Origin: Methanobacteriota archaeon
GTDB taxonomy: Archaea > Thermoplasmatota > Poseidoniia > Poseidoniales > Thalassarchaeaceae
NCBI GenBank assembly: GCA_002712285.1
Contig: PATC01000023.1
Span: 809 to 64,808 of the forward strand
Direction of reading: 5' to 3'
Length of the DNA stretch: 64,000 nucleotides
Below, piece after piece: positions 5,622 through 53,500 of the stretch (the first letter of the stretch is position 1; each line of letters opens with the position of its first letter). Position numbers and translations under genes: made by a program. The notes under the pieces are model-generated. The model searched no databases. It was not told the origin of the DNA and saw only the letters and a program-made list of their open reading frames with translations.

Positions 5622-6617
5622 ATGCTCATCAGCCGAACCCCGGTAAGAGCGTCGTTCTGCGGGGGAGGAACAGATCTTGCCGTATTCTACGAACAAAGTC
5701 CCCACGGAGGGGCCGTCACCTCGATGGCAATGGCACGCTATCTCTATGTGACTGTTAATCCAAGATTCGATGAACAGATACGTGTTTCATACTCAAAAAT
5801 GGAACTTGTAGATTCGTTAGATAACGTCCAGCATGACCTTGTTCGCGAAGCAATGAAATCTACTGGAGTGACTCATGGGGTAGAGATTACTACCATCGCA
5901 GACATCCCCTCTCGTGGGACTGGACTAGGGTCCTCCTCGGCCGTTACAGTCGGCCTTCTCAATGCTCTCTCCACTCTCGTGAATCGACCAATGAATCCAA
6001 TCCAGCTAGCCGAAGAGGCCTGTCGAATCGAAATCGAAATACTTGGGCAGCCGATTGGTAAACAAGACCAGTTCGCTGCCGCAGTAGGGGGTGCAAATAC
6101 AATTGGCTTCCTACCAGATGGAAGCGTTAGTATTGACCCATTGGAATTGTCTCAATCGATTGTTAACCGTATTGAATCTGAATTCACCCTTATTTTCACT
6201 GGTATGACCCGAAGCGCATCATCTGTTCTTTCCGCACAGAAGGAAAGGACTGGCGATCGAATGAGAGAACTAGAACGTCTTCGAGAACAAGCATTTGAGG
6301 TTAGAGGAGCTATCGAGGGGGGCGATTTGGAAGCTGTTGGCGGGCTTCTCGAAGCATCATGGCAAATTAAGCGAACACTCGTCGATGGAATTACGGGGGA
6401 CCATCTGGATACTCTACATGATCGAATCATTAGTTGTGGAGCCTCCGGAGCCAAACTACTGGGGGCAGGAGGAGGAGGTTTCTTCCTCGCCCATGGAGAT
6501 TCCAAAGTTCGTGAAACGCTGCGACAGGAACTTGATGCTGAACACCGTATCCTTCCCTTGGTTCTTGATAGGCATGGTAGCGTTATCATCCATGATGATG
6601 GAAAACGATGGGGGTGA
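5622..6617 (+). CDS. GHMP-family sugar kinase (HddA/heptose-7-phosphate-kinase-like)
   Basis: N-terminal RTPVRASFCGGGTDL matches the R-x-S-F-x-GGGTD start of HddA/glucuronokinase-type GHMP kinases. PSRGTGLGSSSA is the GHMP ATP-binding motif. Confidence 0.6.
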   Translation: MLISRTPVRASFCGGGTDLAVFYEQSPHGGAVTSMAMARYLYVTVNPRFDEQIRVSYSKMELVDSLDNVQHDLVREAMKSTGVTHGVEITTIADIPSRGTGLGSSSAVTVGLLNALSTLVNRPMNPIQLAEEACRIEIEILGQPIGKQDQFAAAVGGANTIGFLPDGSVSIDPLELSQSIVNRIESEFTLIFTGMTRSASSVLSAQKERTGDRMRELERLREQAFEVRGAIEGGDLEAVGGLLEASWQIKRTLVDGITGDHLDTLHDRIISCGASGAKLLGAGGGGFFLAHGDSKVRETLRQELDAEHRILPLVLDRHGSVIIHDDGKRWG

Positions 6618-9441: not shown

Positions 9442-11190
9442 ATGGAGGAGCACATGGATCCCAAGGAACTGCGTATCCAGCAAGCTATCTCTGCTTGGCG
9501 TCGTCCTGTCGATGGAATCGGTTTGATTACTACGCTGGCATTAGTGGCCCTAGGTGCGTATATCGCCTTCCCTGCACTATCTGGAGATTCTTTGTCCAAT
9601 GGCTTTGTGCCACTTTTTGCCCTTCTCGGATGCTCACTACTGGTTGCAGATCTCGTAGATTTTGGACCTAACCAAAGAACTCGAATCGGGACTCTGAGTG
9701 GGATGGTTAGCCCTGTTCTCGTGGTTGCTGGATTGTTTTATGCAACTGAGGCTGTTCTTCGAGAACACCAATTTGCTGGTATAGGGTGGATGTTTTCAGG
9801 AGTTATCTTGATGGCTACAAACACGATTATCTTCGGACAAGAAGAACGTAGTGAAGTTATTCAATATCGAGCAATGATAAGGCTACTCGGACTCACTATC
9901 GCGGCAGCATGGTGTATCGCAGAGATCTCAGAGGATCTGGTCGTGATGTACCTGGTCGCTCTTTTACTCGCTGGCATCGTATTCGGTTTCGATCTTCGAC
10001 TAGGTAAAGATGACCGAATACAAAGACGCATTTTCAGAGAGCGATATGAAACTCTGGAACTTCAGCTTCTCGAAGTACGCGCATCTGGCATAGTCATAGA
10101 TCAAGCCATATCTCTTCTATCTAAAGCAAATGAAGTTGGTTGGACAGATTATGACGAAGGAATGCATCTTCTTCGACAAGCAGAAGATGATCTTGAACGC
10201 ATTTTGAGCTTCTCTGAAGATATTACCGTCATTGAAGAAGACGCGGCATCGTTCGTCGAAGAAGCAACAAAAATTGCACCTCTCGCTGAACGTCCCTTCA
10301 AGGCACTAGAACAGGGGCGGAGAGAAGTCGAGCTAGGAAGTTTACGTGAAGGTGAGATGTTGTATCGACGTGCAAAAGCAAGAGCGCAGGATATTATCGC
10401 AAACTGGGCTGAGGCAGAATCAGCGGTCAATGAAGCAAAGAAAGTCATGGAAGGTTTGACTGGAAATGACTTAGACCGGATGAAAGTGCTACTAAAGGCA
10501 GCACAAGATGCAATGGATGCTGAAGAACCTGGAGATGCAATCACCATTGCATCAGCAATTCCTGCGCATGTAAACAATCTAGGCGAAGCCATGGAAGCAG
10601 CCTCTGAGGCTGTCAAAGATGCAAAGGACCTGATTGCACGAACAGATGGTCTTGACACTACACTCTGGAATGAAATGCTTGAACGGGCTGAAAAAGCACT
10701 TGGGGAGGGAGACGGATCTCTGGCTCGGGGTTTAGCAGATTCTATTCGAAGAGAGATTGAGGCTACAGAGGAAGCAAAAGCAAGTGTTCAACGGTCACTG
10801 AGACAACGAAAGACTCTACGTAAGCGATGGATAGGATGGTCTGATGAAAGTGAGTGGGAGAGTAAATTAGGACAAATCCTTGATGATACGAAGAAAGGAT
10901 CTTGGAGAACTGCATCTGAGATTATGAATGAATTAACGACGGAACTTGATGCACGGACCGCGGCTCTAGAAGATGCCACAGAACTACTTGAATTCCTACT
11001 CGATGAATGGAAGAATCTCAGAAACCAACTACAGAAGGTTGCAATTGGTCCCGATGATAATGAGCGATTGGAGTGTGAAGCAGCAGTCGCCAGTGCTAAA
11101 CAAGCCCACGAAGTTGCGGATGTCCCTAGATGTCTAGATGCTCTCGGAGATGCTGACGGGCGAATGGAAAAACTACGACGTCGAGTTTGA
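9442..11190 (+). CDS. membrane-anchored coiled-coil protein of unknown function
   Basis: Roughly 4-5 N-terminal TM helices (aa 25-190) then ~390 aa of highly charged, heptad-like Ala/Glu/Arg/Leu-rich sequence. Confidence 0.5.
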   Translation: MEEHMDPKELRIQQAISAWRRPVDGIGLITTLALVALGAYIAFPALSGDSLSNGFVPLFALLGCSLLVADLVDFGPNQRTRIGTLSGMVSPVLVVAGLFYATEAVLREHQFAGIGWMFSGVILMATNTIIFGQEERSEVIQYRAMIRLLGLTIAAAWCIAEISEDLVVMYLVALLLAGIVFGFDLRLGKDDRIQRRIFRERYETLELQLLEVRASGIVIDQAISLLSKANEVGWTDYDEGMHLLRQAEDDLERILSFSEDITVIEEDAASFVEEATKIAPLAERPFKALEQGRREVELGSLREGEMLYRRAKARAQDIIANWAEAESAVNEAKKVMEGLTGNDLDRMKVLLKAAQDAMDAEEPGDAITIASAIPAHVNNLGEAMEAASEAVKDAKDLIARTDGLDTTLWNEMLERAEKALGEGDGSLARGLADSIRREIEATEEAKASVQRSLRQRKTLRKRWIGWSDESEWESKLGQILDDTKKGSWRTASEIMNELTTELDARTAALEDATELLEFLLDEWKNLRNQLQKVAIGPDDNERLECEAAVASAKQAHEVADVPRCLDALGDADGRMEKLRRRV

Positions 11191-13038: not shown

Positions 13039-13992
13039 TCAACGAGTGTACTCACTGCTCACAAATCTACGAGTTCCCTGCAAGACATCGATAATCTCAC
13101 TATGAACCGCAGTACGATCAGGAAGGAACTCTACACCTGGAAGATAACCTGTACAGACACCGCTAGCAACGAAAATTGCATCATCCGACTTGCAAAGATC
13201 ATCCCGCTTCCAAATACGCTCGATATCATCATCAATCATACTCTCAGCACGTTCTCGATGACCATCATTCTTGAACACGAGTTGGCCTTCAAAGTGAGCA
13301 CCTAGGCCCCGTAAAGCCGTGGCGGTAATCACACCCTCTGGAGCTGCTCCAATACCAATCAGCATGTCAACCTCAGAATCAGGATTCGCTGCATCAAGAG
13401 CCGCAGATACATCCCCATCACCAATCAATCGAATCTTCACATCCAAATCTCGCAACTCTCGAATCAGTTCCTTGTGACGAGGACGTTCCATTACCACTGC
13501 TAAGATATCACGAGGGAGTTTATCCAACGCATGCGACGCAGCCTCAATGTTGTAAGCTACATCACCTTCAAGAGAAATCTCTCCCGCAAGTTCAGCAGGT
13601 CCTGCAAGCTTGTCCATGTAGCAGTCAGGAGCATGGAGGAGAGTACCGCGAGGAGCGGCAGCGAGAACGGCGATTGCATTGGGTGAGTCATTTGCACAAT
13701 GATTAGTACACTCAAGTGGATCGACCGCAATGTCGATGGTTAAGGCATCAGGGTCATTCTGTCGATTACCGAGGGGTTCGCCAATCCAGAGCATAGGTGC
13801 ATCATCGCGTTCACCCTCACCGATAGCAACACGTCCATCGAATGGAACACTATCAAACACAGCACGCATAGCTTCTACAGCAGCACCATCGGCCATCTTT
13901 CGCTCACCTCTACCACGCCAATCAGCAGCAGCGATTGCAGCAGCTTCAGTTGCTTTCAGGAAGGACTCAGCCAGATCGGCGGTGCGCTCCAT
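13039..13992 (-). CDS. glpX: fructose-1,6-bisphosphatase class II
   Basis: TEAAAIAAADWRGRGERKMADGAAVEAMR and VAIGEGERDDAPMLWIGE match GlpX signatures. The start is taken at MERTADL; the ORF extends to 14106. Confidence 0.8.
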   Translation of the reverse strand: MERTADLAESFLKATEAAAIAAADWRGRGERKMADGAAVEAMRAVFDSVPFDGRVAIGEGERDDAPMLWIGEPLGNRQNDPDALTIDIAVDPLECTNHCANDSPNAIAVLAAAPRGTLLHAPDCYMDKLAGPAELAGEISLEGDVAYNIEAASHALDKLPRDILAVVMERPRHKELIRELRDLDVKIRLIGDGDVSAALDAANPDSEVDMLIGIGAAPEGVITATALRGLGAHFEGQLVFKNDGHRERAESMIDDDIERIWKRDDLCKSDDAIFVASGVCTGYLPGVEFLPDRTAVHSEIIDVLQGTRRFVSSEYTR

Positions 13993-14017
13993 AGTGGCTC
14001 GTGGGTGGATTAGGTGT

Positions 14018-14476
14018 CTAAACCTCACCATCGGATTTCCGCTTCTCCAAAACTCGAATTCCATGAATTTGAGTAGATGGATACTGGCCATCTTCATCCT
14101 TCTCAAAGGATTTCACCATGTCAAGAGCACAGAGTAAGCCTGTAGCTACTGCACAAAGGGCCTCCATCTCGACACCAGTCTTCCAATGGGCAGATACACT
14201 AACCCGACAGATTAGATCCGATTCATCCCAATCCCACTCAACTCGACAACTCTCTAATGGGATGGGATGGCAATGGGGAATCATGCGTGGTGTCTCTTTT
14301 GCAGCTTGAATGGCAGCAATTGTACTGGCTTCAAATACATCGCCTTTCGACACTGACCCTTCCTGAATAGCTGTGATACTATTCAAACCAAGGCGGAGAC
14401 GACCTTCTGCCTGTGCATAGCGCTCAATGATGGGTTTGTGCCCTACTGGGACTATACCGTCGATGCCTTCATTCAT
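14018..14476 (-). CDS. moaC: cyclic pyranopterin monophosphate synthase accessory protein
   Basis: KGDVFEASTIAAIQAAKETPRMIPHCHPIPL matches the MoaC core. The start Met ATG overlaps the moaE stop (ATGA). Confidence 0.8.
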   Translation of the reverse strand: MNEGIDGIVPVGHKPIIERYAQAEGRLRLGLNSITAIQEGSVSKGDVFEASTIAAIQAAKETPRMIPHCHPIPLESCRVEWDWDESDLICRVSVSAHWKTGVEMEALCAVATGLLCALDMVKSFEKDEDGQYPSTQIHGIRVLEKRKSDGEV

Positions 14477-14898
14477 CCTAAGCCCTCTTTCCAGTGAGTC
14501 CCATCCTCGCGAATCTCCTTCTTCCATAATGGGGCCTGTTTCTTGAGGGAATCGATTAGCCATGAACAGGCCTCAAATGCCTCTTTACGATGGGCAGAAC
14601 CGACATGTATCGACACAATCGGTTCACCTGCCCCCACACGACCTACGCGGTGCGACATAGCTACTGCAAGCACACCGAAACGATCTATTGACTCAAGAAC
14701 AAGATTATTCAAAACCTCAGGAAGACGCTCTTCCCACGCGTCAAATTCGAGAGCGTGAACCTTAACTCCATGTTCTACACCTCGTGTGATTCCAAGAAAA
14801 GATACAATGCCACCACAACCGGATAAATCGAGTTTGGAAAGGAGAACTTCTGAATCAAGGAATTCGGACTCAACATGGATTACCACACGCTCGGCCAT
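14473..14898 (-). CDS. moaE: molybdopterin synthase catalytic subunit
   Basis: GGIVSFLGITR, SHRVGRVGAGEPIVSIHVGSAHRKEAFEACSWLIDSLKKQAPLWKKE match MoaE. Confidence 0.75.
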   Translation of the reverse strand: MAERVVIHVESEFLDSEVLLSKLDLSGCGGIVSFLGITRGVEHGVKVHALEFDAWEERLPEVLNNLVLESIDRFGVLAVAMSHRVGRVGAGEPIVSIHVGSAHRKEAFEACSWLIDSLKKQAPLWKKEIREDGTHWKEGLG

Positions 14899-25238: not shown

Positions 25239-25256
25239 GGCTTCAACGAATCGTTT

Positions 25257-25332
25257 AATTTCTCAATTAGAAATTAGATTTCTCAATTGAAAAATACATA
25301 TTTTGAAAGTACAGGAATCCACGATGGATTCC
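25257..25332. promoter_or_regulatory. cluster of operator-like palindromes in a 210-bp AT-rich divergent intergenic region
   Basis: AATTTCTcaattAGAAATT (25257-25275), a second TTTCTCAATTGAAAA copy (25276-25295), and GGAATCCacgatGGATTCC (25314-25332). A tataatatat TATA-like tract and a GCCCC/GGGGC hairpin lie at 25401-25416. Confidence 0.3.
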
Positions 25333-25449
25333 TCCAATTGAATAATGATTTCAATTCAGATTCTCGGCGTTGTATAATATATCCTCGAAACACTATCTGT
25401 GGCCCCTTTTAGGGGCAAGTTCTTGAAGTCGAATACAACCTGAACCTAT

Positions 25450-25785
25450 TTGGATAGTATGATTGAGAACGTCGTTCGCGCTTACACTCACCTTCCAGGT
25501 GTGGTTGAATCGTGGATGGAGAAATTAGACGGTACGATGATCGCCCCCTCCAAAGATGGTGTAAATGGAATCCGCTCTTGGACCACAGCTGAACGTCTAG
25601 CACGGGAATCAGGATTAGGGCAACTGCAAGAGTGGTGGATTGAATCTGATCAAGGTGCAGTCATCGCTTCAAAAACAGGAGATGATTCGTTACTCTGGCT
25701 AAAAACTGATTCTCCGAGACGATTGGGACGTTGTGCCCATGAAGTCAGGAGGACTCGATCCGACCTTGCCAATTTACTGAGGTGA
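25450..25785 (+). CDS. Roadblock/LC7 (MglB-like) domain protein
   Basis: 111 aa whose length and alpha-beta pattern (GVNGIRSWTTAE...QGAVIASKTGDDSL) fit Roadblock/LC7. Called by pattern. Confidence 0.5.
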   Translation: MDSMIENVVRAYTHLPGVVESWMEKLDGTMIAPSKDGVNGIRSWTTAERLARESGLGQLQEWWIESDQGAVIASKTGDDSLLWLKTDSPRRLGRCAHEVRRTRSDLANLLR

Positions 25786-25789
25786 TGAA

Positions 25790-28700
25790 ATGTTTGACCT
25801 ACCCCATGGAGACCCTATCGACAGCCTGTTCGACGGTAGTGCGTTGAATGAAGTAGTTGAGTTTGAATGCGGGATAATCTCGAGTTACAAACCAAAGTCA
25901 CGAAGTCCTTGTGCACATCGAATTGTAGCAGGCGGACACATAGTTGGTTGGCTGGCCGATGCTGAAGAGAACAAACACTACGTTGGAGGTCATGCGGCAA
26001 AGGCACGGCTAGTGGAGTTAGAAGATGCCCATGAATTAAGACACAAGGCATATGCTCTGCTGTTAGAAGAAGTCCGAAGTCTGATTGATGGTGTTCCCGA
26101 ATGCCTTGCCGACCCTGCATTGATGGGCACATTAGGCCTTGCTGGACGTCGTCTTCCTGCGGCTACACATGATTGGCCTCTCGTTGTCGATGTGCTTGAA
26201 TCAGAAACTGGAGTTATTGCTGCTCTAGCATTTGAGGATGGAGTCCTCATACATTCTTCAGGGGAAACACCAGCAGACCCAGATGCACTTTCTGCTGACC
26301 TTGATGCGCAATTGAGAGGTATGGATGCCTTAACTCAACTCATGGGCGCATCACCTGCACCTTGGTATCGACAGGCTTTCGACGAGCACGAGATGACTGT
26401 CGCAAGAGATGGTTCTGCTGGATTAGCACTTTGGACGACCGGTGGGGCTGATCCAATGACACTCTTGATGAATGCTGCAGGCATGATTGAACCATCCGAG
26501 AACGAGGCAGATTCAGAGGTTGTAGCACCAGCAAACGGGTTCATTGTTCGGGAAGGAAAGGGCGGTGTTGATTCATTAATCTCAATGCTTTCTACTGCAA
26601 AGACTGAGGAAATTACAGGACATCTGAGATCTGAAGGAAAAGGTGAATCAGTATCTATTCTCCTAATTGATGGGCTCCCTTCGGGAATCTATTCTACAGC
26701 TGATGGGTTAGAAACTTCAATTCGTGATATTTCCTCACCAAGTGCCGACCTCCAACTTCATCGCTTGGAACGGGCTGCAAGACTAACGCTTGGCCGTGGA
26801 AATATCGATGGATTTACCCTTGAATCAATGTGTCATTCAATAGCCACAGTTCGTACACGTTCAGAGAGTAGACGTGACCTACTAATCGACCGACTAGACA
26901 GATTATATCGATTTGAGATGGGGATGGACATGGTTGATTCAGCAAAGGGCCAATGGAGATTATTGGATACAGGGGGACGTGCTACAGCGAAGATATTGCC
27001 ATCTTCTGCAGCAGGTAAGGTGCTACAGCCCGAAGAACGACAGATTCTCGATCGAATACGTCGCCTAGAGGAAGATAAAATTGGATTGGAACGAGATCGT
27101 GGCCGTTTGGAACGGATGCTCGAAGAAGAGCAAACTCAACGTACCCAATCTGATGAGACTCTTGCTCAAAAGGCAGCGCTTCTTGAAGAGTCCACTAACA
27201 AGGTCAGAAGTCTGAATGAAGAATTAGATCAAGCACGGCTTATTGTTCAAAGCGCCGGCGAATCTAGTGAATCAGATAGGATAAGAGCGGATTCCCTTGC
27301 AAAGCGTGTAGCTGAACTAGAACATCTCGTAGAGCGTAAGGCTATTGAGATTGCATCAGCCATCGGCGAGAGCAAGAAGCGGGAAGAGTTGAGTGTTGAA
27401 CTTGAGGAGATTATGAAGAAAGAAGTAGAGACTCGTGCAACACTCAATGATGCTGAATCTCGACTTGACGAAGTTCGTACTGCACTCAATGAAGATGAAC
27501 GAGTTCAACGTGTACTCTCTGAACAGGTCTCTTCTCTGCGTGATCGACACCGTCTCGCTGATGCAGAAACAAAGGAAGCCGAAGTTCGAATGAGAAATCA
27601 CCGTGCTGAAGTCGCTGCCCTGGAAGGTGATCTCCATACTCTAAGAAGGCAAATCGATGAAGATCGAGGTCGGACTAATGACCTTGAACGTAGGCAGGCT
27701 CTTCTTCAAACAGAATTGAAAGAACTCATGGCTGAACGACGTACACTGATGAGAGAATTAGGCGACCTCGATGCTCGTAAGGCACAGGCAGAAGCGGAAC
27801 TCCGAGAGATGATCACAGATGCTGAAGAACTCACTGAGGCTCATGAGCAGGCTCTAGTTGACATTGCTGAAGCAGATCGAATTCGCTCCCGCCTACAAGA
27901 AGAACCTCTTGCCCGCGCTCTTCTTGATGACGACGGACTGCGGGCTCTCGAACCTGTGCTTGAACGTATGGAGAGTGCTCGTAACCGAGGTCTTTCTATG
28001 GTCCTCCTGGATCGCGCTGTCGAACGAGGGTTAGCGGTTATCCAACATACCGTTGATGAAGTTGCAGCAACACCACGACACCTACTATCGACTGAAGTCA
28101 TGGATCTGCTTGAACAACAGGCTCCAGAAACTGCTTCCGCAGTCCGTGGCCTAACACGTTGGTCAGTACAACAACGCCTACATCACATGCTTGGACAGAT
28201 TGTGAACGACGTAGTACTAGATCTGGAAGATATTCTACGTGGTTACGAGGAGGCTGCCACTACTATTGGCCAGATGAGTGATGTCCTGCGCAGCCTCAAT
28301 GATCTAGGGATGCCTGCGAGACAGATTGAAGCAATTGAGCGAATGCTCACACGACCTGAGACACTACCCCGGATTGCCGCTGAAACACAGGCACTCATCA
28401 ACTCAGCACTCGATGACATCTACATCGATGCAGATCAGAGGGATGCTGGTCAATCAGTTGATTTAGCTTCAACTATTGAAGCATTAGAACGAATGGCAAA
28501 ACGTCTTGAGGTATTATCAGGTGAAGAAGGTGGGTTCCAAGGATCTATTTGGCGCTTCCAAAGATCAGGTATGTTGCCTTTTGAAACCGGTCGACTAGTA
28601 GGAGTTCAACGCCCAGATATTGATAATCGAGCCCTCTTAGAAATGGACCCAGAAAGGACGGATAATTTCGACAATGAGGAAACAAATGGTGGCGAGGTTC

Positions 28701-28969
28701 GCTCCACTTGGGAACCACTACCTGAACCTTCAGAGACACATGGTGTCAGTATATCGAACAGATCAGATTTAGGCTTAGTACCGACCTCAGCCATTCTCGG
28801 TTCGAAGGAGATTCAAGACCTCCATGAGACAGAACGACGGCTTCGTGAAGTAGATTCTATGACAGAACATCGTCAATCTATCCGAAATGGTGTACCTATG
28901 CCAACTGATCCAACCCAACGTGATGCATTGTCCTCTCTTGAGGATGATTTGGCAGATCTCGATATTTGA
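25790..28969 (+). CDS. giant coiled-coil protein with N-terminal Roadblock-like globular region
   Basis: The N-terminal ~400 aa contain Roadblock-like segments (VIAALAFEDGVLIHSSGETPADPDALSADLDAQLRGMDALTQLMG; AGLALWTTGGADPMTLLMNAAGMIE). About 450 aa of uninterrupted heptad-like E/R/L/A-rich coiled coil follows, then a ~300-aa acidic C-terminal domain. Confidence 0.55.
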   Translation: MFDLPHGDPIDSLFDGSALNEVVEFECGIISSYKPKSRSPCAHRIVAGGHIVGWLADAEENKHYVGGHAAKARLVELEDAHELRHKAYALLLEEVRSLIDGVPECLADPALMGTLGLAGRRLPAATHDWPLVVDVLESETGVIAALAFEDGVLIHSSGETPADPDALSADLDAQLRGMDALTQLMGASPAPWYRQAFDEHEMTVARDGSAGLALWTTGGADPMTLLMNAAGMIEPSENEADSEVVAPANGFIVREGKGGVDSLISMLSTAKTEEITGHLRSEGKGESVSILLIDGLPSGIYSTADGLETSIRDISSPSADLQLHRLERAARLTLGRGNIDGFTLESMCHSIATVRTRSESRRDLLIDRLDRLYRFEMGMDMVDSAKGQWRLLDTGGRATAKILPSSAAGKVLQPEERQILDRIRRLEEDKIGLERDRGRLERMLEEEQTQRTQSDETLAQKAALLEESTNKVRSLNEELDQARLIVQSAGESSESDRIRADSLAKRVAELEHLVERKAIEIASAIGESKKREELSVELEEIMKKEVETRATLNDAESRLDEVRTALNEDERVQRVLSEQVSSLRDRHRLADAETKEAEVRMRNHRAEVAALEGDLHTLRRQIDEDRGRTNDLERRQALLQTELKELMAERRTLMRELGDLDARKAQAEAELREMITDAEELTEAHEQALVDIAEADRIRSRLQEEPLARALLDDDGLRALEPVLERMESARNRGLSMVLLDRAVERGLAVIQHTVDEVAATPRHLLSTEVMDLLEQQAPETASAVRGLTRWSVQQRLHHMLGQIVNDVVLDLEDILRGYEEAATTIGQMSDVLRSLNDLGMPARQIEAIERMLTRPETLPRIAAETQALINSALDDIYIDADQRDAGQSVDLASTIEALERMAKRLEVLSGEEGGFQGSIWRFQRSGMLPFETGRLVGVQRPDIDNRALLEMDPERTDNFDNEETNGGEVRSTWEPLPEPSETHGVSISNRSDLGLVPTSAILGSKEIQDLHETERRLREVDSMTEHRQSIRNGVPMPTDPTQRDALSSLEDDLADLDI

Positions 28970-28980
28970 GAGGGGACCCA

Positions 28981-29235
28981 ATGTCGGACGCTGATTCTCC
29001 TCTAACCCTTCTTGGGCGCGAAGAGAATATTGCTCCAATCCGATATCGCAGACCTTTCGATATTTTCGCGCTATTATTTGGCCTCATAATTACAATAATA
29101 GTTGGATGGTTTGGTTGGAAAGCAGGCGGTGTTGGCCCAATTAGTGCCGAGATGGTAGTGGCTCTTTCTTGCTTCCCAGGAGTGATTATCGGACTACTGA
29201 TTTCGGAAATCCTATCACGGTTCTTCGATCGTTGA
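28981..29235 (+). CDS. small two-TM membrane protein
   Basis: An ATG 15 nt inside the TTG-started ORF. Two hydrophobic helices, 84 aa. Confidence 0.4.
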   Translation: MSDADSPLTLLGREENIAPIRYRRPFDIFALLFGLIITIIVGWFGWKAGGVGPISAEMVVALSCFPGVIIGLLISEILSRFFDR

Positions 29236-30456
29236 ATCGTTAGTTGTCCTTACTGTTCCATTGACTTGATTCAAACCCTTCTCGATTAATCCACTAATTC
29301 GTGGCCATGGAATGATATAACGCATTCCTGCAACAAAGATGACGAAAATTAGGGCTGAAATTACAGTCCCATAAGTGAGTTGAAGCTCAAGGGATTCCTC
29401 AACTTGACCACTCCACTGCGTTCCCTCGAAGAAGGACATTAGGTCGACAATCAAGTCATCAAACTTGAGAGCAAGAGCAGTAACAAGTCCCACAAAGAAG
29501 ACCATTCCTCCCGTATGCTTCAGATGTGTATTCAAGATATTATCGAACTGACGGACATATTCAGGATCTTTCTTGCAGGATTCAGGTAGTTTGAACGCAT
29601 ACTGCATGTACCTGATTGTAGCAGAACCTGATTCTAAGAAAATCATCAGTAGTAGGCCAATGGTCAGTAATGGAATAATTTCTGGTGCTATGAGTCCCCC
29701 CCATTCTGTAGCTTCACCAATCTGTACTGGTAAAGCTTGGAGATTTACCTCAACCGAGGAACGAACACCCTCGTAAGAAAGCAATGAATGGAGACCAAGA
29801 TAGACAATGGTAGAACCGACAGACCAAGTTATCTGCTGATTAGACAAACGCCAAATTCCCATTAGCCCAGTAAATACGGGAAGGAAGTAAATCAAGAGAA
29901 GAAATAGTTCGATGTAAAGTAACAAAGGGCTAACGAGGTATTCTACATGGTTCTTGTTGATTTCATCCTGTCCAAAAGGCAAGTAGAAACTGAATGAACC
30001 AATCATCCCGAATAGCCAAGTGATTAGGAAAAGACCTGCAAGATACAACAATGCAACTGACAGGATACCTAAGTTGACACGACGTCGAATCTTCATTGAC
30101 TGGTATCCAAGGAATGTCCAGCCAGCAACAATTGCACCGATAATCAATAGAGGCATCCAATATCGCCCATCTCCCTCGTTACCCATGCCGATCATCCAAT
30201 CTGGGAGAGGCCATGACTTATCGAGAGCGACAACGTACTGGTCGAGGACGCCTAGGGTAAGCGTGTGATCTACTGCTGGACACCAGGTCGCATCAATGGG
30301 GTCACATAATCCGTAAGTGCGCGTAATCATGATGTACATCCAGACAAGAGAAATTGTTGCGGTAATCTGGAGGGCTAATACCTGCCACTTACGACGAAGT
30401 GAACGTAGATGGAGAGATGTATGCCCTTCACCCTGTAGATTCACATCTTCCGCCAT
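29215..30456 (-). CDS. polytopic membrane protein (last gene of the CDC48-DUF58 operon)
   Basis: About 8 predicted TM helices. Its start is 4 nt from the DUF58 gene stop. Confidence 0.5.
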   Translation of the reverse strand: MAEDVNLQGEGHTSLHLRSLRRKWQVLALQITATISLVWMYIMITRTYGLCDPIDATWCPAVDHTLTLGVLDQYVVALDKSWPLPDWMIGMGNEGDGRYWMPLLIIGAIVAGWTFLGYQSMKIRRRVNLGILSVALLYLAGLFLITWLFGMIGSFSFYLPFGQDEINKNHVEYLVSPLLLYIELFLLLIYFLPVFTGLMGIWRLSNQQITWSVGSTIVYLGLHSLLSYEGVRSSVEVNLQALPVQIGEATEWGGLIAPEIIPLLTIGLLLMIFLESGSATIRYMQYAFKLPESCKKDPEYVRQFDNILNTHLKHTGGMVFFVGLVTALALKFDDLIVDLMSFFEGTQWSGQVEESLELQLTYGTVISALIFVIFVAGMRYIIPWPRISGLIEKGLNQVNGTVRTTNDSTIEEP

Positions 30457-30460
30457 TTAA

Positions 30461-31714
30461 TCACCCCATCTTGACCTGTAACAGAGCTTGGGACAACTCC
30501 ACATCCGGCATCCAATCAATCACACGTGCTCCAAAACCTGCAAGAGCAGTCAATCGATTCTGACGCTCAAGCTTGAGAACCTCATAAGAAGTCCTAGGAA
30601 TTCGGCTAACGAGTCGTTCGAAATCGACACTGCTAGGACTGAGAATGATGACTTCATGACCTCTTCCAGCAAGATCGCGAACAGCAGGAATCGTTGTACC
30701 ATCGCCCTCAGCTGCACTAATGATGAAGACTGGGGATCCTCTGCTAAAACGTGATGAAAGTGCATTTGTCACAGCTTGCAGGGGCATTGCACCCTTAGGA
30801 GCAACTCCAGCTAGACTACTCAAGATTTTGAAATACTGCTTATCACCAGTATCAGGAGGTAGGAAAGAAAGGTGATCATCGTAAACAGCAAGAGCTACAC
30901 TATCTCGACGTTTGATGAAGTATGAAGCAAGAGATGCTGCGGCTACTGTGCCCACTTCAAGTGGATTCTTGAGAACTGTACCAATACGACTGATGTCACG
31001 ACTATCAAGGAGAATAAAGACATCTGTAACCGCATCCCTACACTTCTCATTAACAATTAGAGTCCCGGTTCGAGCAAATGCCTTCCAATTGATTATCTTG
31101 AATGGGTCACCAGGAACATATTCTCGTAAACTAAAGAATTCAGTCCCAGGACCCGGTGTTCTAAGAGTCGTTGCACCAGTATACATCTTTGGGGTGCGAC
31201 TACGAACCATCGCCTCCTCAATTTCACGTACCTGTGGAAATACGATGAGATCCGAACGGTGATCAACATACATTTCTTGTGCAAATAAGTTGAATGAATC
31301 ACGATAGCGAATCGATATTGGACCTAGAGAATAATGACCTCTCAAGGGGCATCGAAGAACGTAACGAATGCGAGTTGTCTCGCCTGGGCCAAGATTAACA
31401 CGCATGTAATTCAGACCACTTCGTAGTTTCATTTCATGTGGGATATTGTCGTAGATTTCGAGTTGTTGAGTCCTACGCCAAGAGGAATTAGTAACCTCTA
31501 GATCAACGTATAAATCGTCACCTTTGTACAGATTATCTGCACTAAGTGTGCGGACTACTTCGATATCACCGTGACCTGTTATCCATGAGGCAACGGAGAT
31601 AAAAGAGACAAATGCAACACCAAATACCATCATCTGGAAGTTGGACATCATCATCCCAATGAGCACTAGAGATACACCAGATGCACCTAGAATCGAAGCT
31701 TTGCGAGTCCACAT
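30461..31714 (-). CDS. DUF58-family protein (vWA-like fold, normally a MoxR partner)
   Basis: Two N-terminal TMs. The signature LREYVPGDPFKIINWKAFARTGTLIVNE is followed by a vWA-like DVFILLDSRD segment. Confidence 0.65.
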   Translation of the reverse strand: MWTRKASILGASGVSLVLIGMMMSNFQMMVFGVAFVSFISVASWITGHGDIEVVRTLSADNLYKGDDLYVDLEVTNSSWRRTQQLEIYDNIPHEMKLRSGLNYMRVNLGPGETTRIRYVLRCPLRGHYSLGPISIRYRDSFNLFAQEMYVDHRSDLIVFPQVREIEEAMVRSRTPKMYTGATTLRTPGPGTEFFSLREYVPGDPFKIINWKAFARTGTLIVNEKCRDAVTDVFILLDSRDISRIGTVLKNPLEVGTVAAASLASYFIKRRDSVALAVYDDHLSFLPPDTGDKQYFKILSSLAGVAPKGAMPLQAVTNALSSRFSRGSPVFIISAAEGDGTTIPAVRDLAGRGHEVIILSPSSVDFERLVSRIPRTSYEVLKLERQNRLTALAGFGARVIDWMPDVELSQALLQVKMG

Positions 31715-31718
31715 ATCC

Positions 31719-33374
31719 TCAGCGCCTCCCCCATATTTTAATCCGCTTAATTACCGCGATTACTTCTTCCATTGAATATCGCCGATCTTCAAAGATGAAT
31801 TTGACGAGCACGGGATCATTCACCATCTTCTGCAATTCACGTGCTGGCAAGGCATCAAATTCCTCACGACTCAATGAATTGACGTTTCTTACTCTAGTTA
31901 GTAGGATTTGCTTAATCTTCTTTGGATTAGCATAGTACTCGTATCTAGCTGCATCTCCATACCCATAGTAAATAATGCTGAAAACATGACGCCACGGCTC
32001 GGGATCCATCTTCTTGATAATGATAAACTCAAACAAAACAAACAAGCTGAGGAACATAAACAACATGGCCATCCAATCGTTCGTGAAATAGATCAGGATG
32101 TAGTAGAGAAGATTGTAGGTGTCCCCCATGAAACTAGGTTGTTGATGACGACTCTCATCGAAAATCACTTGCGCTTCAGCAGATATTTGCCCATCCTCAG
32201 ACATGAGGGCTTCTGCAAGCGCATCCAACGCCCATCGACGATTGTCATTATCTGGAACCGTTTTATTCAGGTCCCCATATGCACCCTCTGCAAAACCCGC
32301 AGTATCGTAAAGCGCATTGATTAGTAAACTACCATCAGTTACAAAGTAAGCTCGACCAGCATCAGCACTGTCACAATTTCTTGACCTGCAGTACTTGATG
32401 TAGGTGGCAAATGGCCCTTGCTCATCAGCACCAACTTCTGAACCACTAAAACCAACAGTAAGTTGGCCATCATCATTGGTGTCAAGATATGCATCTTGAG
32501 AGGAGTACCCTATCGCGTAGAGATTTTGATTTTCGTCTCCAGAGAGGTCTTTGTCGAATGCACTTGGTTGGTTGAGCAGAAGATCGTAACCAGGATTCGT
32601 GTCATACTGTTGTGTTATCGAATCCCATCGATGTGCGCATAGACCTAGATCGGTTGAAGTCGGTAGACGTTCAAATCCGACACTAGGGTTACTAGACTCA
32701 ACATCAAGGAAATCTGGAACACCGTCAGTGTCTCCATCAGCAGTACATGGGTTTGTCTCCGTCTTCGGTCCCGAAGTGCTGGTGTAATTGAAGCCATTCG
32801 TAATGTTGGACCAAACGAAATTGTAATCCAGACTTGGATCCCAAGTTTGAGTATCATACAATTGATGGCCGCTGAATCCTAGACCGAAGTCCTCGGCTAA
32901 GCCTTGTGAATAGCCAAAATCATCTAGCATAATTAGCGTCCCTCCACGCTCAACAAAAGTCCGGATAGCATCAATCTCGGAGTTTGAATAACCAAGGCCT
33001 TCGACTAGATTGATTACTGATGAATCACCGCTAAAACTTGGCAATGAAATTGTATCTCGTTCCACTCCAGAGATAACGAACACTGTATCGCTAGGCGATT
33101 GAATCTCCTCTAAAAGTAAAGGACTACTGACTATACTAGTGGTAGTAAGATTCTGTGACTTGATGTCCTCACGGAATGAACTCATATCATTCCAATCAGT
33201 TCCGTATGCGCTCTGATGAACTTCTGAACGTTCAATGTAGGTACCTGCTACCGTCATTAGAAGGGTGCCGAGTGTAAGATAAAACAGGACTATAGCAACC
33301 GAACGGCGACCATTCGCTGACCGTAACCAATCAGTCACAGTAGCAACGTTCAATGAAGCCAATCCTATCACCAT
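31719..33374 (-). CDS. membrane-anchored protein, DUF4350-like
   Basis: N-terminal TM, an extracytoplasmic domain containing IRTFVERGGTLIMLDDFGYSQGLAEDFGL (DUF4350/GldG-like motif), and a C-terminal TM. Tentative. Confidence 0.4.
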   Translation of the reverse strand: MVIGLASLNVATVTDWLRSANGRRSVAIVLFYLTLGTLLMTVAGTYIERSEVHQSAYGTDWNDMSSFREDIKSQNLTTTSIVSSPLLLEEIQSPSDTVFVISGVERDTISLPSFSGDSSVINLVEGLGYSNSEIDAIRTFVERGGTLIMLDDFGYSQGLAEDFGLGFSGHQLYDTQTWDPSLDYNFVWSNITNGFNYTSTSGPKTETNPCTADGDTDGVPDFLDVESSNPSVGFERLPTSTDLGLCAHRWDSITQQYDTNPGYDLLLNQPSAFDKDLSGDENQNLYAIGYSSQDAYLDTNDDGQLTVGFSGSEVGADEQGPFATYIKYCRSRNCDSADAGRAYFVTDGSLLINALYDTAGFAEGAYGDLNKTVPDNDNRRWALDALAEALMSEDGQISAEAQVIFDESRHQQPSFMGDTYNLLYYILIYFTNDWMAMLFMFLSLFVLFEFIIIKKMDPEPWRHVFSIIYYGYGDAARYEYYANPKKIKQILLTRVRNVNSLSREEFDALPARELQKMVNDPVLVKFIFEDRRYSMEEVIAVIKRIKIWGRR

Positions 33375-33444
33375 CCAGCAAGTGGAGCAAGATTCAGACG
33401 CTCATGCGAGCCTTAAGACGGTTGTGCGGTCCCGCGCAGGTAAA

Positions 33445-33690
33445 TCAGCGATGCAGGTGCACGATTGCACCTATTTCTCTAACTTCATCTACTGGAAGGG
33501 AAATCATACCCGCCTCGGAGGGCCAAGGTAACTGAGCTGGATCAAGTTCCTGCGCAATTTTCACGAGAATGTATGTCACAGAACCTGTTCGTGAGTCGAC
33601 AACAAGATCTGCTACATGACCAAGCACATCGCCACTCCTATCTCGAACCTCCCTTGCGAGAAGTTCTCGCGTGAAGGTCGCTGGCAACAA
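33445..33690 (-). CDS. PRC-barrel domain protein
   Basis: 81 aa containing LLAREVRDRSGDVLGHVADLVVDSRTGSVTYILVK, a PRC-barrel-like beta pattern. Confidence 0.5.
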   Translation of the reverse strand: MLPATFTRELLAREVRDRSGDVLGHVADLVVDSRTGSVTYILVKIAQELDPAQLPWPSEAGMISLPVDEVREIGAIVHLHR

Positions 33691-33696
33691 AACACC

Positions 33697-35919
33697 TCAT
33701 ACCGATTCTATACCACGTAGACCGTCATTGTTCCGACGAATGGAGTCCAATCCACTGGTAAGCATTGATTGGAGTTTTTCGTAATACTCCATCATCTGGG
33801 GCGTAACAGTAGGCCGGACGCGATCAATCGCTTCCTCGAAGTGTTTGCGAGTAATTGTCTTCCTCTTCGCTCTCATAGCAATAAGAGCGGCTTCCCGACA
33901 AACTGCTTCAACATCTGCGCCCGTATATCCAGACAGAGGTTTTGCCATATCATCCAGAGAGAACTTCCCGATTGGCATGTCCTCGGTATGAATTTTCAGA
34001 ATCTCACGAATAGAATCCTCATCAGGAGGAGGAACGTGAAGCACCCGTTCAAAACGTCCAGACCGAAGAAGAGCCGGATCTATCATTTCAGGACGGTTTG
34101 TAGCAGCAATGACAATGACACCATCCAAAGCTTCGACACCATCCATTGAAGATAAAAGCTGATTGACGACGCGATTCATCACATCACTGCCTTCGCCTCT
34201 GTTTTCAACACGAGCACCTGCGATAGATTCGAATTCGTCAAGGAAAATGATACTCGGAGCGGCCTGCTTCGCTTTCTTGAACACCTCTCGAATGCCTCGC
34301 TCGGATTCACCAACCCATTTGGAAATCATCTCAGGACCCTTTACAGAGATGAAATTAGCCTTTGCTTCGTTCGCAATCGCCTTCGCAATGAGGGTCTTTC
34401 CAGTACCAGGAGCGCCGAAGAGAATGACACCCCGTGGAGGCTTAACACCAAAATGCTCGAACAACTCAGGTTGAGTCAAAGGCCACTCAATGCTCTCCTT
34501 CAGTCGATCCTTGATTTCATGTAGACCACCTACTTGGTCCCAGGAGACCTCTGGAATCTCAACATAAATTTCCCGTAATGCACTGGGTTCGATGTCCTTT
34601 ATGGCCTCCTTGAAATCAGCCATCTGGACCTCCATCTTCTCAAGGACCTCTGGTGCAATCTCTTCCTCATCAAGATCAATTTCTGGAAGATATCGCCGAA
34701 GAGCCTTCATCGCTGCCTCTCTGACGAGTGCATTGATGTCAGCACCAACGAAACCATAGGTATTTTCGAGAACCCATTCAATCTCAAAATCATCACTAAT
34801 CGGCATTCCACGCGTATGTATGTCAACTATCTCACGCCGACCTTCCTTGTCAGGGACACCAATTTCGAGTTCACGATCGAACCGACCAGGGCGTCGAAGA
34901 GCCTGATCTATTGCATCACGACGATTCGTTGCTCCGATTACTATGACGTTGTCACGTCCATGCATACCATCCATCAACGTGAGAAGTTGTGCTACAACGC
35001 GGCGCTCAACTTCTCCTGTAACGTCTTCACGCTTGGGTGCGATACTATCTAATTCGTCAATGAAGATAATTGCTGGAGCATTTTGAGTGGCATCATCGAA
35101 AATCTCTCTGAGTTGCTTCTCTGATTCACCATAATATTTTGAGATGATTTCGGGACCATTTATGGAAGTAAAATGAGCATTTGTCTCAGAAGCTACCGCT
35201 TTGGCAATCATTGTCTTACCTGTTCCAGGTGGCCCATGAAGGAGGACTCCCTTTGGCGGGTCAATACCTAGCCTTCGGAATAGAATAGGATGCTTAAGTG
35301 GAAGTTCAATCATTTCCCGAACTTTTTGGAGTTGGTTGCCCAAGCCGCCGATGTCTTCGTATGCGATTTGGTGGCCTGCTGCATCTTCCTCCTCATCTAG
35401 GATCTCCTCTTTGATGACAATTTCTGTCTCTGGTGCGACCTGTACGATGCCTTTAGGCCGCGTGCTAACTATTGCGAAAGGGAGGGCCTCAGCGAAAAGC
35501 GTCATTCCAGGTATGAAAATACGATCCCCAGCAACAACAGGTCTCTTGTTCAAACCTCGACGAGCAAACCCTTCAATGCCTGGTCCAAAGCGAACCTTCT
35601 GTTGCTTAGCCATCACTGGAGAAAGAACAAGTCGTTCACATTTCTTGACCTCAACCTTACGGACATCAACACGATCTCCCAGACTAACACCTGCATTCTT
35701 ACGGATGATTCCATCGATTCGAATTACACCTAGATTCGCATCCTCTGGCCGACAGCGCCACACAACAGCAGCAGTCTTGTTCTCGCCCGATATCTCGATG
35801 ATATCACCTGGCTTCAAATCGAGATCGTTATTGAATGGGACTCGAGCTCGGCCATGTCCAACATCACTGGGAATCGCTTTCGCAACACGGAGAGTCACTG
35901 ATTCGTCTGCTCCTGCCAT
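33697..35919 (-). CDS. cdc48: CDC48/VCP/VAT-type AAA+ ATPase (double-psi-barrel N domain + D1 + D2)
   Basis: Two complete AAA modules, each with GPPGTGKT / GAPGTGKT Walker A and DELDSIA / DEFESIA Walker B. The N-domain is [13 protein letters not shown]...[20 protein letters not shown]. Confidence 0.9.
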
Positions 35920-42325: not shown

Positions 42326-45300
42326 TCAACATATATTGTCGTCATCATTCTCATCTGCCAGTACATCCGATTCATCTTCGTCAATCGGAAGACCATCAAG
42401 CTCCACCAATAAGGCATCTGATTCTGCAACAATCCAAGGAGTTCCAGATTCATCTTTCGTAGAATTAGAACGGAGGTTACGCAAAACTAGAGTAAGCAAC
42501 GACAGCAATATGAGGACTGAAAGTACAACACCGGGTAAAATAAATCCAATTCCATCAGCCTGTTCCTCAGTTTCTTCAAATGACTCTTCTTTCGGTAATT
42601 CTACCTCTCCTGTTACATTCAATCCTGTGATGTTGGAATCGTCCATACGGCCTAGCCCATCACGACACAGGATACTCGCGCTTACATTCTCCATAGGACG
42701 ACCAGGTTTCCATTCAACAAGCACCTCTCCATCCTGATTGGGAGACGCTTCCACCGATAGAATACTGATATTCTCTTGGACGATAGCGATGTTACAGAGA
42801 ACACTAGATAGATCATCGAGATCGGTCACGTTAAATTCGATTGTACTGAGTGCACCTACTTCAGCCCCGACTGGCCAATGTATGTCGTGAATTACAGGTG
42901 AAGGGAATATTATCTCAATTGATTCAGTCCATCCAGAGGCTAAACCATCCTGATCTACTGCGATCAATACTAGCGATGCTTCTCCCTCAGTAAAGTCGTC
43001 AGGAACATTCACTGTGTAGACGATAGTATCCATCTCACCGCATGTTGAAGAAGAATCTAGGGAGACATCAAGCGTCTCACTCCAACCAGCCTGTCGAATC
43101 GATGCTGTCGTCTGCAAAACCTTGCGATGAACATCAAGATGCACTACCATGTGATTATTTTCACCTCTGTTCAAGATTGAGCCATTCACAAGTGGAGATA
43201 TCTCTCCACCTCTACAGATGTTAATCTCTGAGAACGATGGAGGACGAGTCTCCACAGATAGAGAGGTGGATTTGACTACCTGACCAGCATCGCGATCGAC
43301 GACCGATACCTCGAGTAAGAGTGTACCTGATGTCAATCCAGGTCCAGGTGATGGAATTGGAACTATAGTTTCGGTCCCATTAGTCATTACTGTGAAAGGT
43401 ACCTTCATCTCTCCTTGCTCTGGCCATTGTAAGGATAGTTGACCATTCGCTACCCCTGGAACAGCATCTAAATCCAAGACGGAAATTCTTACTGATTCAT
43501 TGCCTACCCCAAAAGCGAAATCTTCAGATTGACCATCTCTCTCAAATGTGAATGATACTGTTGGATTTTCATTCTCAACAAGTATCGATCGAGTAGAACG
43601 AAGATTACCATCTGAATCAATAAGACGTCCAAGGAAAGGGGTTAACGGTTGATCCAAAGGAAGTAGCAAATTACTTGCATAGCAATGAAAACTGGATGTA
43701 GGATCTTTCGGCAGAGCGATAATCGGCCCAGTGATACCGGATTCAAAAGAAAACGTTGGCGCCTCTTCAATGGAATCATGATCTACGTCCTCAACACAAG
43801 CACGAATAATCGATTCGCGTCCGCGGATCATCCCTTCTGGTGTACTCGAAGGGAGATTCGTGTCACCATTCCAACCATTCTCGTCCGCTCCTTGAATGTG
43901 AATACCATACCAAATTGAAGGAGAATCAATGAATTCTAGAGCATCAGCAAGAGTCGATGTCGTATTGATACCATCGATATCAGAAATAACGAATTGAACA
44001 TCATAAAAATCGAGAGCCGCATCACCAGGAACATCGAAGAAGGCTGTCCATCGCTCGGAACCACTCGATAGAGCATTCATCGAAATCAGGACTGATCCCT
44101 CCTGATCGGAAATTATCATCTGTGCGGCGTCCATGCCGAAATCATCTGTCGCATCCACCCAGCAAGCAACAGTTGCGCCACGTGGGACAACATTAGAGGA
44201 GCAAGCGATACTTGTGATAACTGGTGGCCCGTTAATCTGCGTATTCACCGTCTGGACGTTGTTGTGTACTATTCTCTCAGAAAGAATCCTCGACTGCACG
44301 AACTGAGAACTGTTCAGGATTGGTCCATCGTCGGCAATATATCGAATCTGGAAATCAACGTAACCAGTAGTTGAAGTCATTACCGGAATAAGGAGCGTTG
44401 CTACAGAACCTGGTTCATTGCCAGCTGGCAAAGTAATCGATTGATTCGTCAACAAATAATTGCCAATTCTTTCCCTTACCTCAATCCACCCAGATGCTGG
44501 AGCCGCTCCAAGATTAGCGACATCTACATGCATATCAAAAATCTCGTCAGCAGATGCCCTAACCGGTACAGAAGCATTTCTGATCTCAACATCGTGCAAT
44601 TGATTAGCGAATGGGGCCATCTTAGGATCACCTACAATCACACCCATCCAAGAAAGATGGCCATTTGAGACAGTGTAAGCCTCACCAAGATTGTAACCAG
44701 ATGCATAATACGTGGTCAACAAATCTGGCTTAGAGACCGCTGTTAGGTAAGGTTCGTACACATATCCCTTGACCCCAGATACACCATCTTCGAGAAGATC
44801 TGCAATGAGACTTTGTCCATATTCAGTGCCCCAGTTGAAAGAACGCCCTCCAGTCGAAACTGCTGTCTCAGCGATAGAACCTGGGACCCAATCCATGTGT
44901 GGACGGATAATTTGGAGATTCGTCGTATCGAAGTGTAAAGCACCTTGACGACTAATATTCAGAATCTCTGCCTTGTAGGATATCTGCAATGTAGTTGCAT
45001 TTTCATGAGGGCGGAATCGAATATTCTGTTGGACCCAAGAGGGCGTCATACTAGTCGGATTTGTAGAATTGACTGAAAGAAGAGTACCGTTACTATCGTA
45101 AGACTCTACATTCAATATCCAATCTGCATTAATCTCCCCTGAAGATTGTCCATTTCCAGAAAGTATCCATGCATGCCCCATTTGTTCAACATCCAATGTG
45201 AGGTTTGTTGATATCCAACTTGACCCTTGACCAACCGTTGTAAACGCAGGACAATCAAGAGCTACTTCCCCATTTACTAGAGTAATATCAGATGCATTCA

Positions 45301-49882: not shown

Positions 49883-50128
49883 GATTTTTCGCTGGTGCTT
49901 CCAATTGCATTTCAATTGAATCTAACCGATTACGCACAATCTTGATTTCATCTCGAACTGAATCCGTAGATGCCTGCTCAAGAAGACGAGCAATAGAATC
50001 CAGATCTCGAATAATTGATTGGAGTCTCCGCTGATGTGTAGCCCGACTCAGATTATCTTCGTCCATGAGACGGGGAAACCTACATCCTGCATGAAGAGTA
50101 TGGTTCATGGAATCAATGGAGGATTGAA

Positions 50129-53364: not shown

Positions 53365-53500
53365 CCCTGCGAGAGGACTTCAGGGTATTCCATTTTCGGA
53401 TTCTAGAGTAATGAGGACCTCTGAAAAAAAAACTGACGGTACTGCGCCATGTTCATATGTCGGGCTGAAGGGTATTCTGGGTGTCACCGTAGGTGTTGGA

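Follow-up and report, generated by a model that had tools for sequence, protein, structure and literature searches.

A conserved operon of the Poseidoniales encoding a stand-alone Roadblock/LC7 protein, a large coiled-coil protein with a fused Roadblock domain and a small two-transmembrane protein

In a 64,000-nt stretch of archaeal DNA (contig PATC01000023.1; the window), derived from a Thalassarchaeaceae genome within the Marine Group II archaea (MGII, the order Poseidoniales), we analysed three consecutive genes that encode a small stand-alone Roadblock/LC7 protein, a large multidomain protein with a coiled-coil rod, and a small protein with two transmembrane (TM) segments. These genes form a tightly packed operon that is co-conserved across the whole order; the operon is vertically inherited, occurs in essentially all Poseidoniales and is exclusive to them. 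The large protein carries one Roadblock domain, flanked by two orphan domains. We give roughly even odds (a probability of about 0.5) to the view that the products of this operon assemble into a membrane-tethered coiled-coil scaffold with a Roadblock dimer platform, belonging to the 'orphan' class of MglB/Roadblock proteins.

All three genes lie on the forward strand, and both their boundaries and the 4-nt spacing between the first two agree with the initial annotation of the window, which had been made from the sequence alone. The stand-alone Roadblock gene occupies positions 25459..25785 (108 aa) when read from its ATG; this start is preferred over the alternative TTG at 25450, because the database orthologs are 108 aa long and begin with MIENV. 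The large gene (25790..28969; 1059 aa) starts after a gap of 4 nt, its ATG preceded by a Shine-Dalgarno (SD)-like GAGGTGA, and the small Roadblock gene is translationally coupled to it. After a further gap of 11 nt follows the third gene (28981..29235; 84 aa), and SD-like sequences are present in the spacers. The open reading frame (ORF) list places the start of this last gene at a TTG (28966); its database orthologs start at the equivalent of ATG 28981. Hydropathy analysis of the third protein indicates two TM segments, as first proposed, together with a conserved N-terminal TLLGREE-like motif predicted to be cytoplasmic.

The gene arrangement is a property of the lineage rather than of a single contig. 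When the distribution was scanned with each GTDB species represented by a single genome, the large protein was encoded in 291 genomes, and 80 of these loci were fetched. At 54 of the 61 testable loci, the start of the large gene is preceded, at a distance of -4 to +9 nt, by the end of an ORF of about 100-120 aa, and all 54 of these ORFs match a hidden Markov model (HMM) of the small Roadblock protein. On the other side, the stop codon of the large gene is followed 8-13 nt later by the start of an ORF of 60-100 aa at 61 of 66 loci, so that the small membrane protein is also kept by position; two hydrophobic segments are found in 51 of these 61 ORFs. All 80 fetched loci belong to MGII save one, an 18.8-kb contig (L083; CAXRJJ010000006.1) from a metagenome-assembled genome labelled 'Yoonia sp.' (Rhodobacteraceae), which carries ncsA, the small Roadblock gene, the large gene and genes for a multi-TM protein (TM413), DUF58 and DUF4350. 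This contig is almost certainly a binning contaminant, because the neighbouring genes are plainly those of MGII.

Protein database searches give the same picture. The large-protein family is a narrow one; it comprised 14 clusters in a search of 5.8 billion proteins, and 75 matches were found among 1.84 billion representatives, about a dozen of them full-length (1020-1089 aa) and the rest fragments. Its members are named Thalassarchaeaceae, Poseidoniaceae, Poseidoniales or unclassified Euryarchaeota, and are almost always annotated as 'hypothetical protein'; a single JGI record bears the COG2018 Roadblock name. Stand-alone paralogs of the C-terminal domain (about 250-280 aa) were considered and rejected, as they proved to be genes broken by frameshifts in long-read assemblies, in which neighbouring genes are split too. 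In two ENA 'pilon' long-read assemblies (L010 and L011), for instance, the large protein, Cdc48, an AI-2E transporter and DUF58 are each broken into 2-4 ORFs, and such frameshifted assemblies inflate the databases with apparent short 'paralogs'. The most divergent lineage examined (L009), in which the large protein is 33% identical, departs from the usual layout: a 448-aa FG-GAP-repeat protein replaces the 2-TM gene (13221-14567), a methyltransferase gene separates ncsA from the small ORF, and the latter is called at 139 aa, against about 108, with an N-terminal extension. We found no description in the literature of the large-protein family, nor of Roadblock proteins in Poseidoniales. The Roadblock domain itself is already known, and many orphan Roadblocks have been recorded. 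The novelty lies in how the parts are combined and distributed: a stand-alone Roadblock occurs with a fused one, alongside two orphan domains, a rod of 290 aa, a conserved helical bundle and a 2-TM partner, throughout the Poseidoniales and nowhere else.

The assignment of the small ORF to the Roadblock/LC7 superfamily, which the initial annotation had made from the sequence alone, is established at the level of family profiles. On its own, the window copy scores 13.5 bits against Pfam Robl_LC7 (PF03259), below the gathering score of 23, and the large ORF has no Pfam match at all. Had the window proteins only been scanned, whole and in parts, against Pfam/NCBIfam, the Roadblock call, for which the initial annotation had itself demanded an HMM match, would have been wrongly rejected; deeper profiles and structure prediction recover it. 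Divergent orthologs of the small ORF were gathered via synteny and from the 80 species-representative loci, and Robl_LC7 is matched individually by 34 of the resulting 57 sequences (best E=9e-8). The profile built from all 57 matches solved Roadblock structures in the PDB, i.e., 7f8m (1.6e-9), 7yh1 (2.6e-7), MglC (9.5e-6) and CvnB5 (1.1e-4), with alignments that cover about 105 of 108 residues. This end-to-end alignment, to 7f8m in particular, suggests that the small protein adopts the complete Roadblock fold.

Three structural units precede the rod of the large protein. They were delimited in an AlphaFold2 (AF2) model of residues 1-412, computed from an 11-sequence alignment with a mean predicted local distance difference test score (pLDDT) of 71, as residues ~25-105, 126-231 and 251-325. 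Pfam gave no match for the first ~400 aa, whole or in pieces, either for the window protein or for 13 relatives. The middle unit (domain B; 26156..26494, aa ~123-235) is assigned as a Roadblock/LC7 domain from its predicted topology and from profile matches. In the AF2 model its elements follow the order alpha-beta-beta-alpha-beta-beta-beta-alpha, which is that of a canonical Roadblock. An exhaustive HMMER search of the 1.84 billion representatives with the N-terminal profile retrieved, via positions 126-220, a stand-alone 116-aa protein (E=1.3e-4) that is itself a Robl_LC7 protein (9.6e-14 in Pfam). Two members of the large-protein family show weak Robl_LC7 matches at the same position (E≈0.05), and the isolated domain-B profile matches CvnB5 (3leq) at 1.1e-4 with 14 sequences and at 3.6e-4 with 61; hence, the sequence match of domain B to Roadblocks is significant at the profile level only. 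LAMTOR2, 3, 4 and 5 are all found among the fold and profile matches. The fold searches took whole models, and the Roadblock domain dominated the resulting lists.

The units on either side of domain B are orphans. Domain A (25790..26155, aa 1-122) is predicted from AF2 secondary structure (pLDDT about 70-85) to be a beta-rich alpha/beta domain, with an invariant MFxLPxG motif at its N-terminus. Domain C (26522..26974, aa 245-395), delimited from the AF2 model and from conservation, is predicted to have the order beta-alpha-beta-beta-beta-alpha-beta, followed by helices, and shows the near-invariant motifs REGKGG.D..SML, TGH and RTRSExR. The last of these (aa 352-361, window about 26843-26872) lies in the helix after the domain and may be a basic patch or a phospho-site. 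Neither domain has a Pfam match or a PDB profile match. Their comparison with the Roadblock domain by hhalign was not significant (E=0.24-0.51), and their predicted order of strands and helices differs from that of a Roadblock. Since only domain B has Roadblock matches, we conclude that the large protein contains one Roadblock domain, and not the several Roadblock-like segments initially suggested for its first ~400 aa. Two other identities were tried and found no support at the level of sequence profiles: that domain A arose by duplication of domain C (not significant in hhalign, with E=0.08 across 94 columns), and that domain C is a PATAN/DUF4388 (PF14332) or longin domain, as its topology had suggested (no such match at Pfam E≤10 for 14 divergent segments, and none in the PDB).

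The remainder of the large protein also differs in part from the first description, which had envisaged ~450 aa of continuous coiled coil followed by a 300-aa acidic C-terminal domain. A coiled coil is present, and its length comes to about 290 aa (27032..27904, aa ~415-705), in a proline-free segment identified by heptad scoring. In the family alignment, a 3.5-residue hydrophobic periodicity runs through ~aa 395-700 with z=2.5-9.6 against shuffled sequences; outside the rod the periodicity is mostly at background, with a few isolated windows at z 3-6. A rod of ~290 residues would be roughly 40 nm long, if it forms one extended coiled coil. Its C-terminal third is strongly conserved. Mid-rod, a KRVxELEHQ...A.GES motif (aa ~505-528, window about 27302-27373) falls where the heptad register shifts, and may serve as a hinge or for docking. 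The weak database matches inside the rod are to coiled coils of diverse proteins, i.e., SMC arms, Rad50, the crescentin rod, ATG16 and TNIP2. Acidic character is restricted to the tail (28595..28966, aa 936-1059), which is predicted to be disordered, is poorly conserved and has a net charge of -16; a conserved amphipathic helix of the pattern L..LE..L.DLD[IMLF] closes it. The segment between rod and tail (27905..28594, aa 706-935) is a predicted all-helical bundle and the most conserved part of the protein (mean identity 55%), with motifs that include LLDRAVERGL and VRGLTRWSVQQRL; no specific fold match was found for it.

As the initial annotation had stated, no GTPase is encoded nearby. None of the ORFs of ≥110 aa in the 64-kb window contains a GTPase domain, and within ±10 kb of 91 related loci (about 1.5 Mb of flanks) no ORF with G1 and G4 motifs was found, save for a non-conserved chance occurrence of the pattern inside the large protein of one lineage. 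The scan of the flanks used the G1 and G4 motifs only; DxxG was not required, because MglA-type GTPases carry Thr in that motif. MglB homologs have been defined as 'coupled' when a gene for an MglA-family GTPase lies within four genes, and in a survey from 2014, 328 of 749 prokaryotic MglB homologs were orphan, none of them characterised (PMC4316618). No such gene accompanies the present operon, which places it in the 'orphan' class.

Given this architecture, we propose that the coiled coil would dimerise the large protein, and that the stand-alone Roadblock protein would pair with the fused Roadblock domain, forming a dimer platform on one end of the rod, itself about 40 nm long. Such pairing is probable, because Roadblocks are obligate dimers in all solved examples, i.e., MglB, LAMTOR2/3, LAMTOR4/5, LC7 and the Asgard Roadblocks. 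Roadblock proteins are described as obligate homo- or heterodimers that serve as platforms mostly for small GTPases (PMC10933270; PMC4316618), a role that they share with longin dimers (PMC10933270). The 2-TM protein would anchor the assembly at the cytoplasmic membrane, while the conserved helical bundle and the acidic tail would form an effector-binding end. The partner that the platform would recruit or regulate may be a small GTPase or another NTPase whose gene lies elsewhere, and the whole assembly might act as a positional or organisational scaffold. The architecture is compatible with such a scaffold; the cytoskeletal, motility or polarity role suggested in the initial annotation is conjectural. 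The core of the module as first described (a stand-alone Roadblock, a Roadblock fused to a coiled coil, a 2-TM protein and no GTPase) stands, with fewer Roadblock domains and a shorter rod. Several observations weigh against the scaffold. The AF2 models are of moderate confidence only (pLDDT 68-71) and come from shallow alignments, and the alignment of the two Roadblock units with each other by hhalign, although in register, is not significant (E=0.004-0.014, probability 3-8%). Moreover, no fold or function can be assigned to domain A, to domain C or to the C-terminal domain, the most conserved of all; hence, the key activity may lie in parts that defy interpretation.

The SMC models TIGR02168 and TIGR02169 and the Rad50 model match the large protein weakly (22, 19 and 9 bits), and the JGI names of certain fragments are 'SbcCD ATPase subunit' or 'myosin heavy subunit'. 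The model matches do not extend beyond the coiled coil (aa 394-703), and their scores fall far under the cutoffs of 567-1087 bits. In 14 diverse members, neither a Walker A motif ([GA]xxxxGK[ST]), nor an LSGGQ-like ABC signature, nor any P-loop is conserved, and the terminal domains are predicted as a Roadblock/alpha-beta unit and a helical bundle instead of the halves of an ABC head. None of the three operon proteins has NTPase motifs. Because these motifs are absent, we reject the idea that the large protein is an SMC/Rad50/MukB-type ATPase with overlooked head motifs, to which we assign a negligible likelihood, and the initial annotation, which had named this alternative itself, is upheld in this respect. 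The same heptad rod could instead belong to a cytoskeletal element that works independently of any GTPase, an intermediate filament-like polymer of the crescentin/FilP/Scy type lying under the membrane, in which the Roadblocks would only dimerise or cap the filament and regulate no NTPase. The length of the rod, the lack of a GTPase in the window and within ±10 kb of the 91 loci, and the commonness of orphan Roadblocks (PMC4316618) are consistent with this, and two family members weakly match the crescentin rod (E=0.0025). However, that match is at the level of composition and far below threshold; most of the conserved sequence lies in the globular domains, outside the rod; and the rod makes up only about 27% of the protein, whereas proteins of this type are usually rod-dominated. 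We regard such a filament as unlikely.

A different role, as cytoplasmic partner of the adjacent envelope genes, is suggested by the genomic neighbourhood. Downstream of the operon, on the reverse strand (29215-35919), lies a convergent block encoding a 413-aa multi-TM protein (TM413), DUF58 (vWA-like; 417 aa), DUF4350/arCOG01314 (551 aa), a PRC-barrel ORF and Cdc48; the Roadblock platform might regulate the Cdc48 AAA+ ATPase or position the complex. The adjacency is invariant wherever contigs reach (TM413 at 75, DUF58 at 74, DUF4350 at 65 and Cdc48 at 58 of the 80 loci), and the convergent 3' ends abut or overlap, those of the 2-TM and TM413 genes doing so by 21 nt in the window. The combination of arCOG01314 (DUF4350), vWA and AAA+ proteins has been predicted by Makarova et al. 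(PMC5898192) to form an archaeal secretion or membrane-remodelling complex; the present block is of similar make-up, but contains Cdc48 where a MoxR ATPase is usual. Furthermore, according to PMC4316618, a general role of the Roadblock superfamily in regulating NTPases was predicted by Koonin and Aravind (2000). On the other hand, the convergent orientation means that the operon and the envelope block are not one operon, and ncsA (tRNA thiolation) and an aldehyde dehydrogenase gene are equally conserved neighbours, so that the synteny may merely reflect a collinear, streamlined MGII genome. Evolutionary rates differ greatly as well, DUF58 being 75-99% identical across the order where the large protein is 37% identical. 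In addition, the word 'Roadblock' occurs 0 times in PMC5898192, where the neighbourhoods of arCOG01314 are described without a Roadblock or coiled-coil partner. We consider this partnership quite unlikely. It reappears in the boldest version of our proposal: an unrecognised archaeal cell-organising apparatus, in which a Ragulator-like, membrane-anchored Roadblock heterodimer platform on a ~40-nm tether, without a dedicated small GTPase, would perhaps regulate or position the Cdc48/DUF58/arCOG01314 complex, and in which domains A and C and the C-terminal domain would be new Poseidoniales-specific folds or functions. Taken as a whole, this is a speculation that we judge improbable.

The flanks of the operon are constant across loci wherever contigs reach: ncsA lies upstream in divergent orientation, and the convergent genes for a ~410-aa multi-TM protein, DUF58, DUF4350, a PRC barrel, Cdc48 and aldehyde dehydrogenase lie downstream. 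Between ncsA (reverse strand) and the Roadblock operon (forward strand) is a 220-bp divergent intergenic/promoter region (25239..25458). The initial annotation had described it as AT-rich with operator-like palindromes; its GC content is 35%, against 46% in the window, and one of its motifs is conserved at 50 of 64 loci. This CAATTG-centred palindrome was seen by sequence inspection in 3-4 copies (25256-25276, 25278-25295, 25333-25346 and 25349-25360); the distance of the copies to the start of ncsA is 18-120 bp, and to that of the Roadblock gene 100-200 bp. Its extended consensus, ATTTTTCAATTGAAAAAT, is an 18-bp perfect palindrome, present in 1-3 copies. With ≤1 mismatch, TTCAATTGAA is found in those 50 of the 64 species-representative loci, two or three times in many of them; the background rate is 0.04 per 400 nt. 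The element is kept in clades whose large proteins are 74% and 37% identical, and it is sharply confined to the ncsA/Roadblock region, about 300-700 nt upstream of the large gene (loci L012-L091). Hence, the conserved palindrome is a candidate transcription-factor operator of ncsA, of the Roadblock operon or of both. A perfect copy of TTCAATTGAA is also present at window position 49911. Inspection of the region further revealed a 9-bp perfect palindrome, AGGAATCCA-CGA-TGGATTCCT (about 25313-25333), and a TATA-like TTGTATAATATAT (25371-25383). Conservation of a GCCCCT-TTT-AGGGGC hairpin and of the 9-bp GGAATCCA palindrome was looked for in the orthologous loci and found to be absent.

Elsewhere in the window, two adjacent genes with T2SSF domains (an ArlJ/PilC-like platform of an archaellum or type IV pilus) are located at 23-2087 on the forward strand, about 23 kb from the operon, and are followed by a small DUF7261-like ORF (2388-2966). 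Two very large ORFs encode proteins of 1714 aa with PA14 and Laminin_G_3 domains (42326-47470, reverse strand) and of 1733 aa with CARDB (53354-58555, forward strand), the latter probably a surface protein or adhesin. No Pfam match was found for two ORFs of 1035 and 582 aa that form a pair (6295-9402 and 9442-11190, both on the forward strand); in L009, a Pfam-less pair of like size (1001 and 581 aa) lies beside a GHMP kinase gene, the likeness being one of size only.

MGII are among the most abundant archaea of the surface ocean and are uncultured, and to our knowledge almost nothing is known of their cell biology. Since the operon is essentially universal in the Poseidoniales and exclusive to them, and its products are annotated as 'hypothetical', we regard it as a lineage-defining module and a good candidate for the cell-organisation machinery of MGII. 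Its practical value is limited, because there is no cultured host or genetic system. Nevertheless, the operon offers a concrete, well-delimited case of the orphan Roadblock/MglB class, in which a Roadblock is joined to a rod and a candidate membrane anchor, and its architecture could reveal what Roadblock platforms do without a cognate GTPase attached. The operator-like palindrome provides a handle for finding the regulator.

The operon differs from each of the closest known systems. MglB of Myxococcus xanthus and Thermus thermophilus is a Roadblock-fold GTPase-activating protein of the Ras-like GTPase MglA, and sequence identity is only 17-20%; unlike in the MglB systems, no mglA-like gene lies within 4 genes of the operon, in the 64-kb window or within ±10 kb at the 91 loci, one of the two Roadblocks is part of a 1059-aa coiled-coil protein, and a membrane-protein gene closes the operon. 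Among conservon Roadblock proteins, represented by Streptomyces CvnB and mycobacterial MfpD, CvnB5 (3leq) gives the best sequence-profile match of the fused Roadblock (1.1e-4 and 3.6e-4), and is matched by the small-ORF family at 1.1e-4. Conservons encode the sensor kinase CvnA, the DUF742 protein CvnC and the GTPase CvnD beside CvnB, whereas in scans of the window counterparts of CvnA, CvnC and CvnD were all absent at the operon. The conservon proteins form a membrane-associated heterocomplex (Komatsu et al., 2006, as cited in PMC4316618). Compared with the stand-alone Roadblocks of Asgard archaea (Thorarchaeota 7f8m; Prometheoarchaeum 7yh1, 9jue and 9jq8), the operon belongs to Thermoplasmatota/MGII, has no GTPase nearby and has a coiled-coil giant as the putative partner of its small Roadblock. 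With crescentin, FilP/Scy and EzrA the large protein shares a likeness without demonstrated homology; here, the rod is the minority of the protein, and the Roadblock and orphan domains are more distinctive and more conserved. The combination of two different Roadblock units with a membrane anchor resembles, by analogy only, Ragulator (LAMTOR1-5), in which LAMTOR2/3 and LAMTOR4/5 are held on the lipid-anchored LAMTOR1. Homology to Ragulator is limited to the Roadblock fold, the candidate anchor of the operon is a 2-TM protein, and Rag-like GTPases with C-terminal Roadblock domains do not accompany it, while the rod is a feature of the Poseidoniales operon that has no counterpart in Ragulator.

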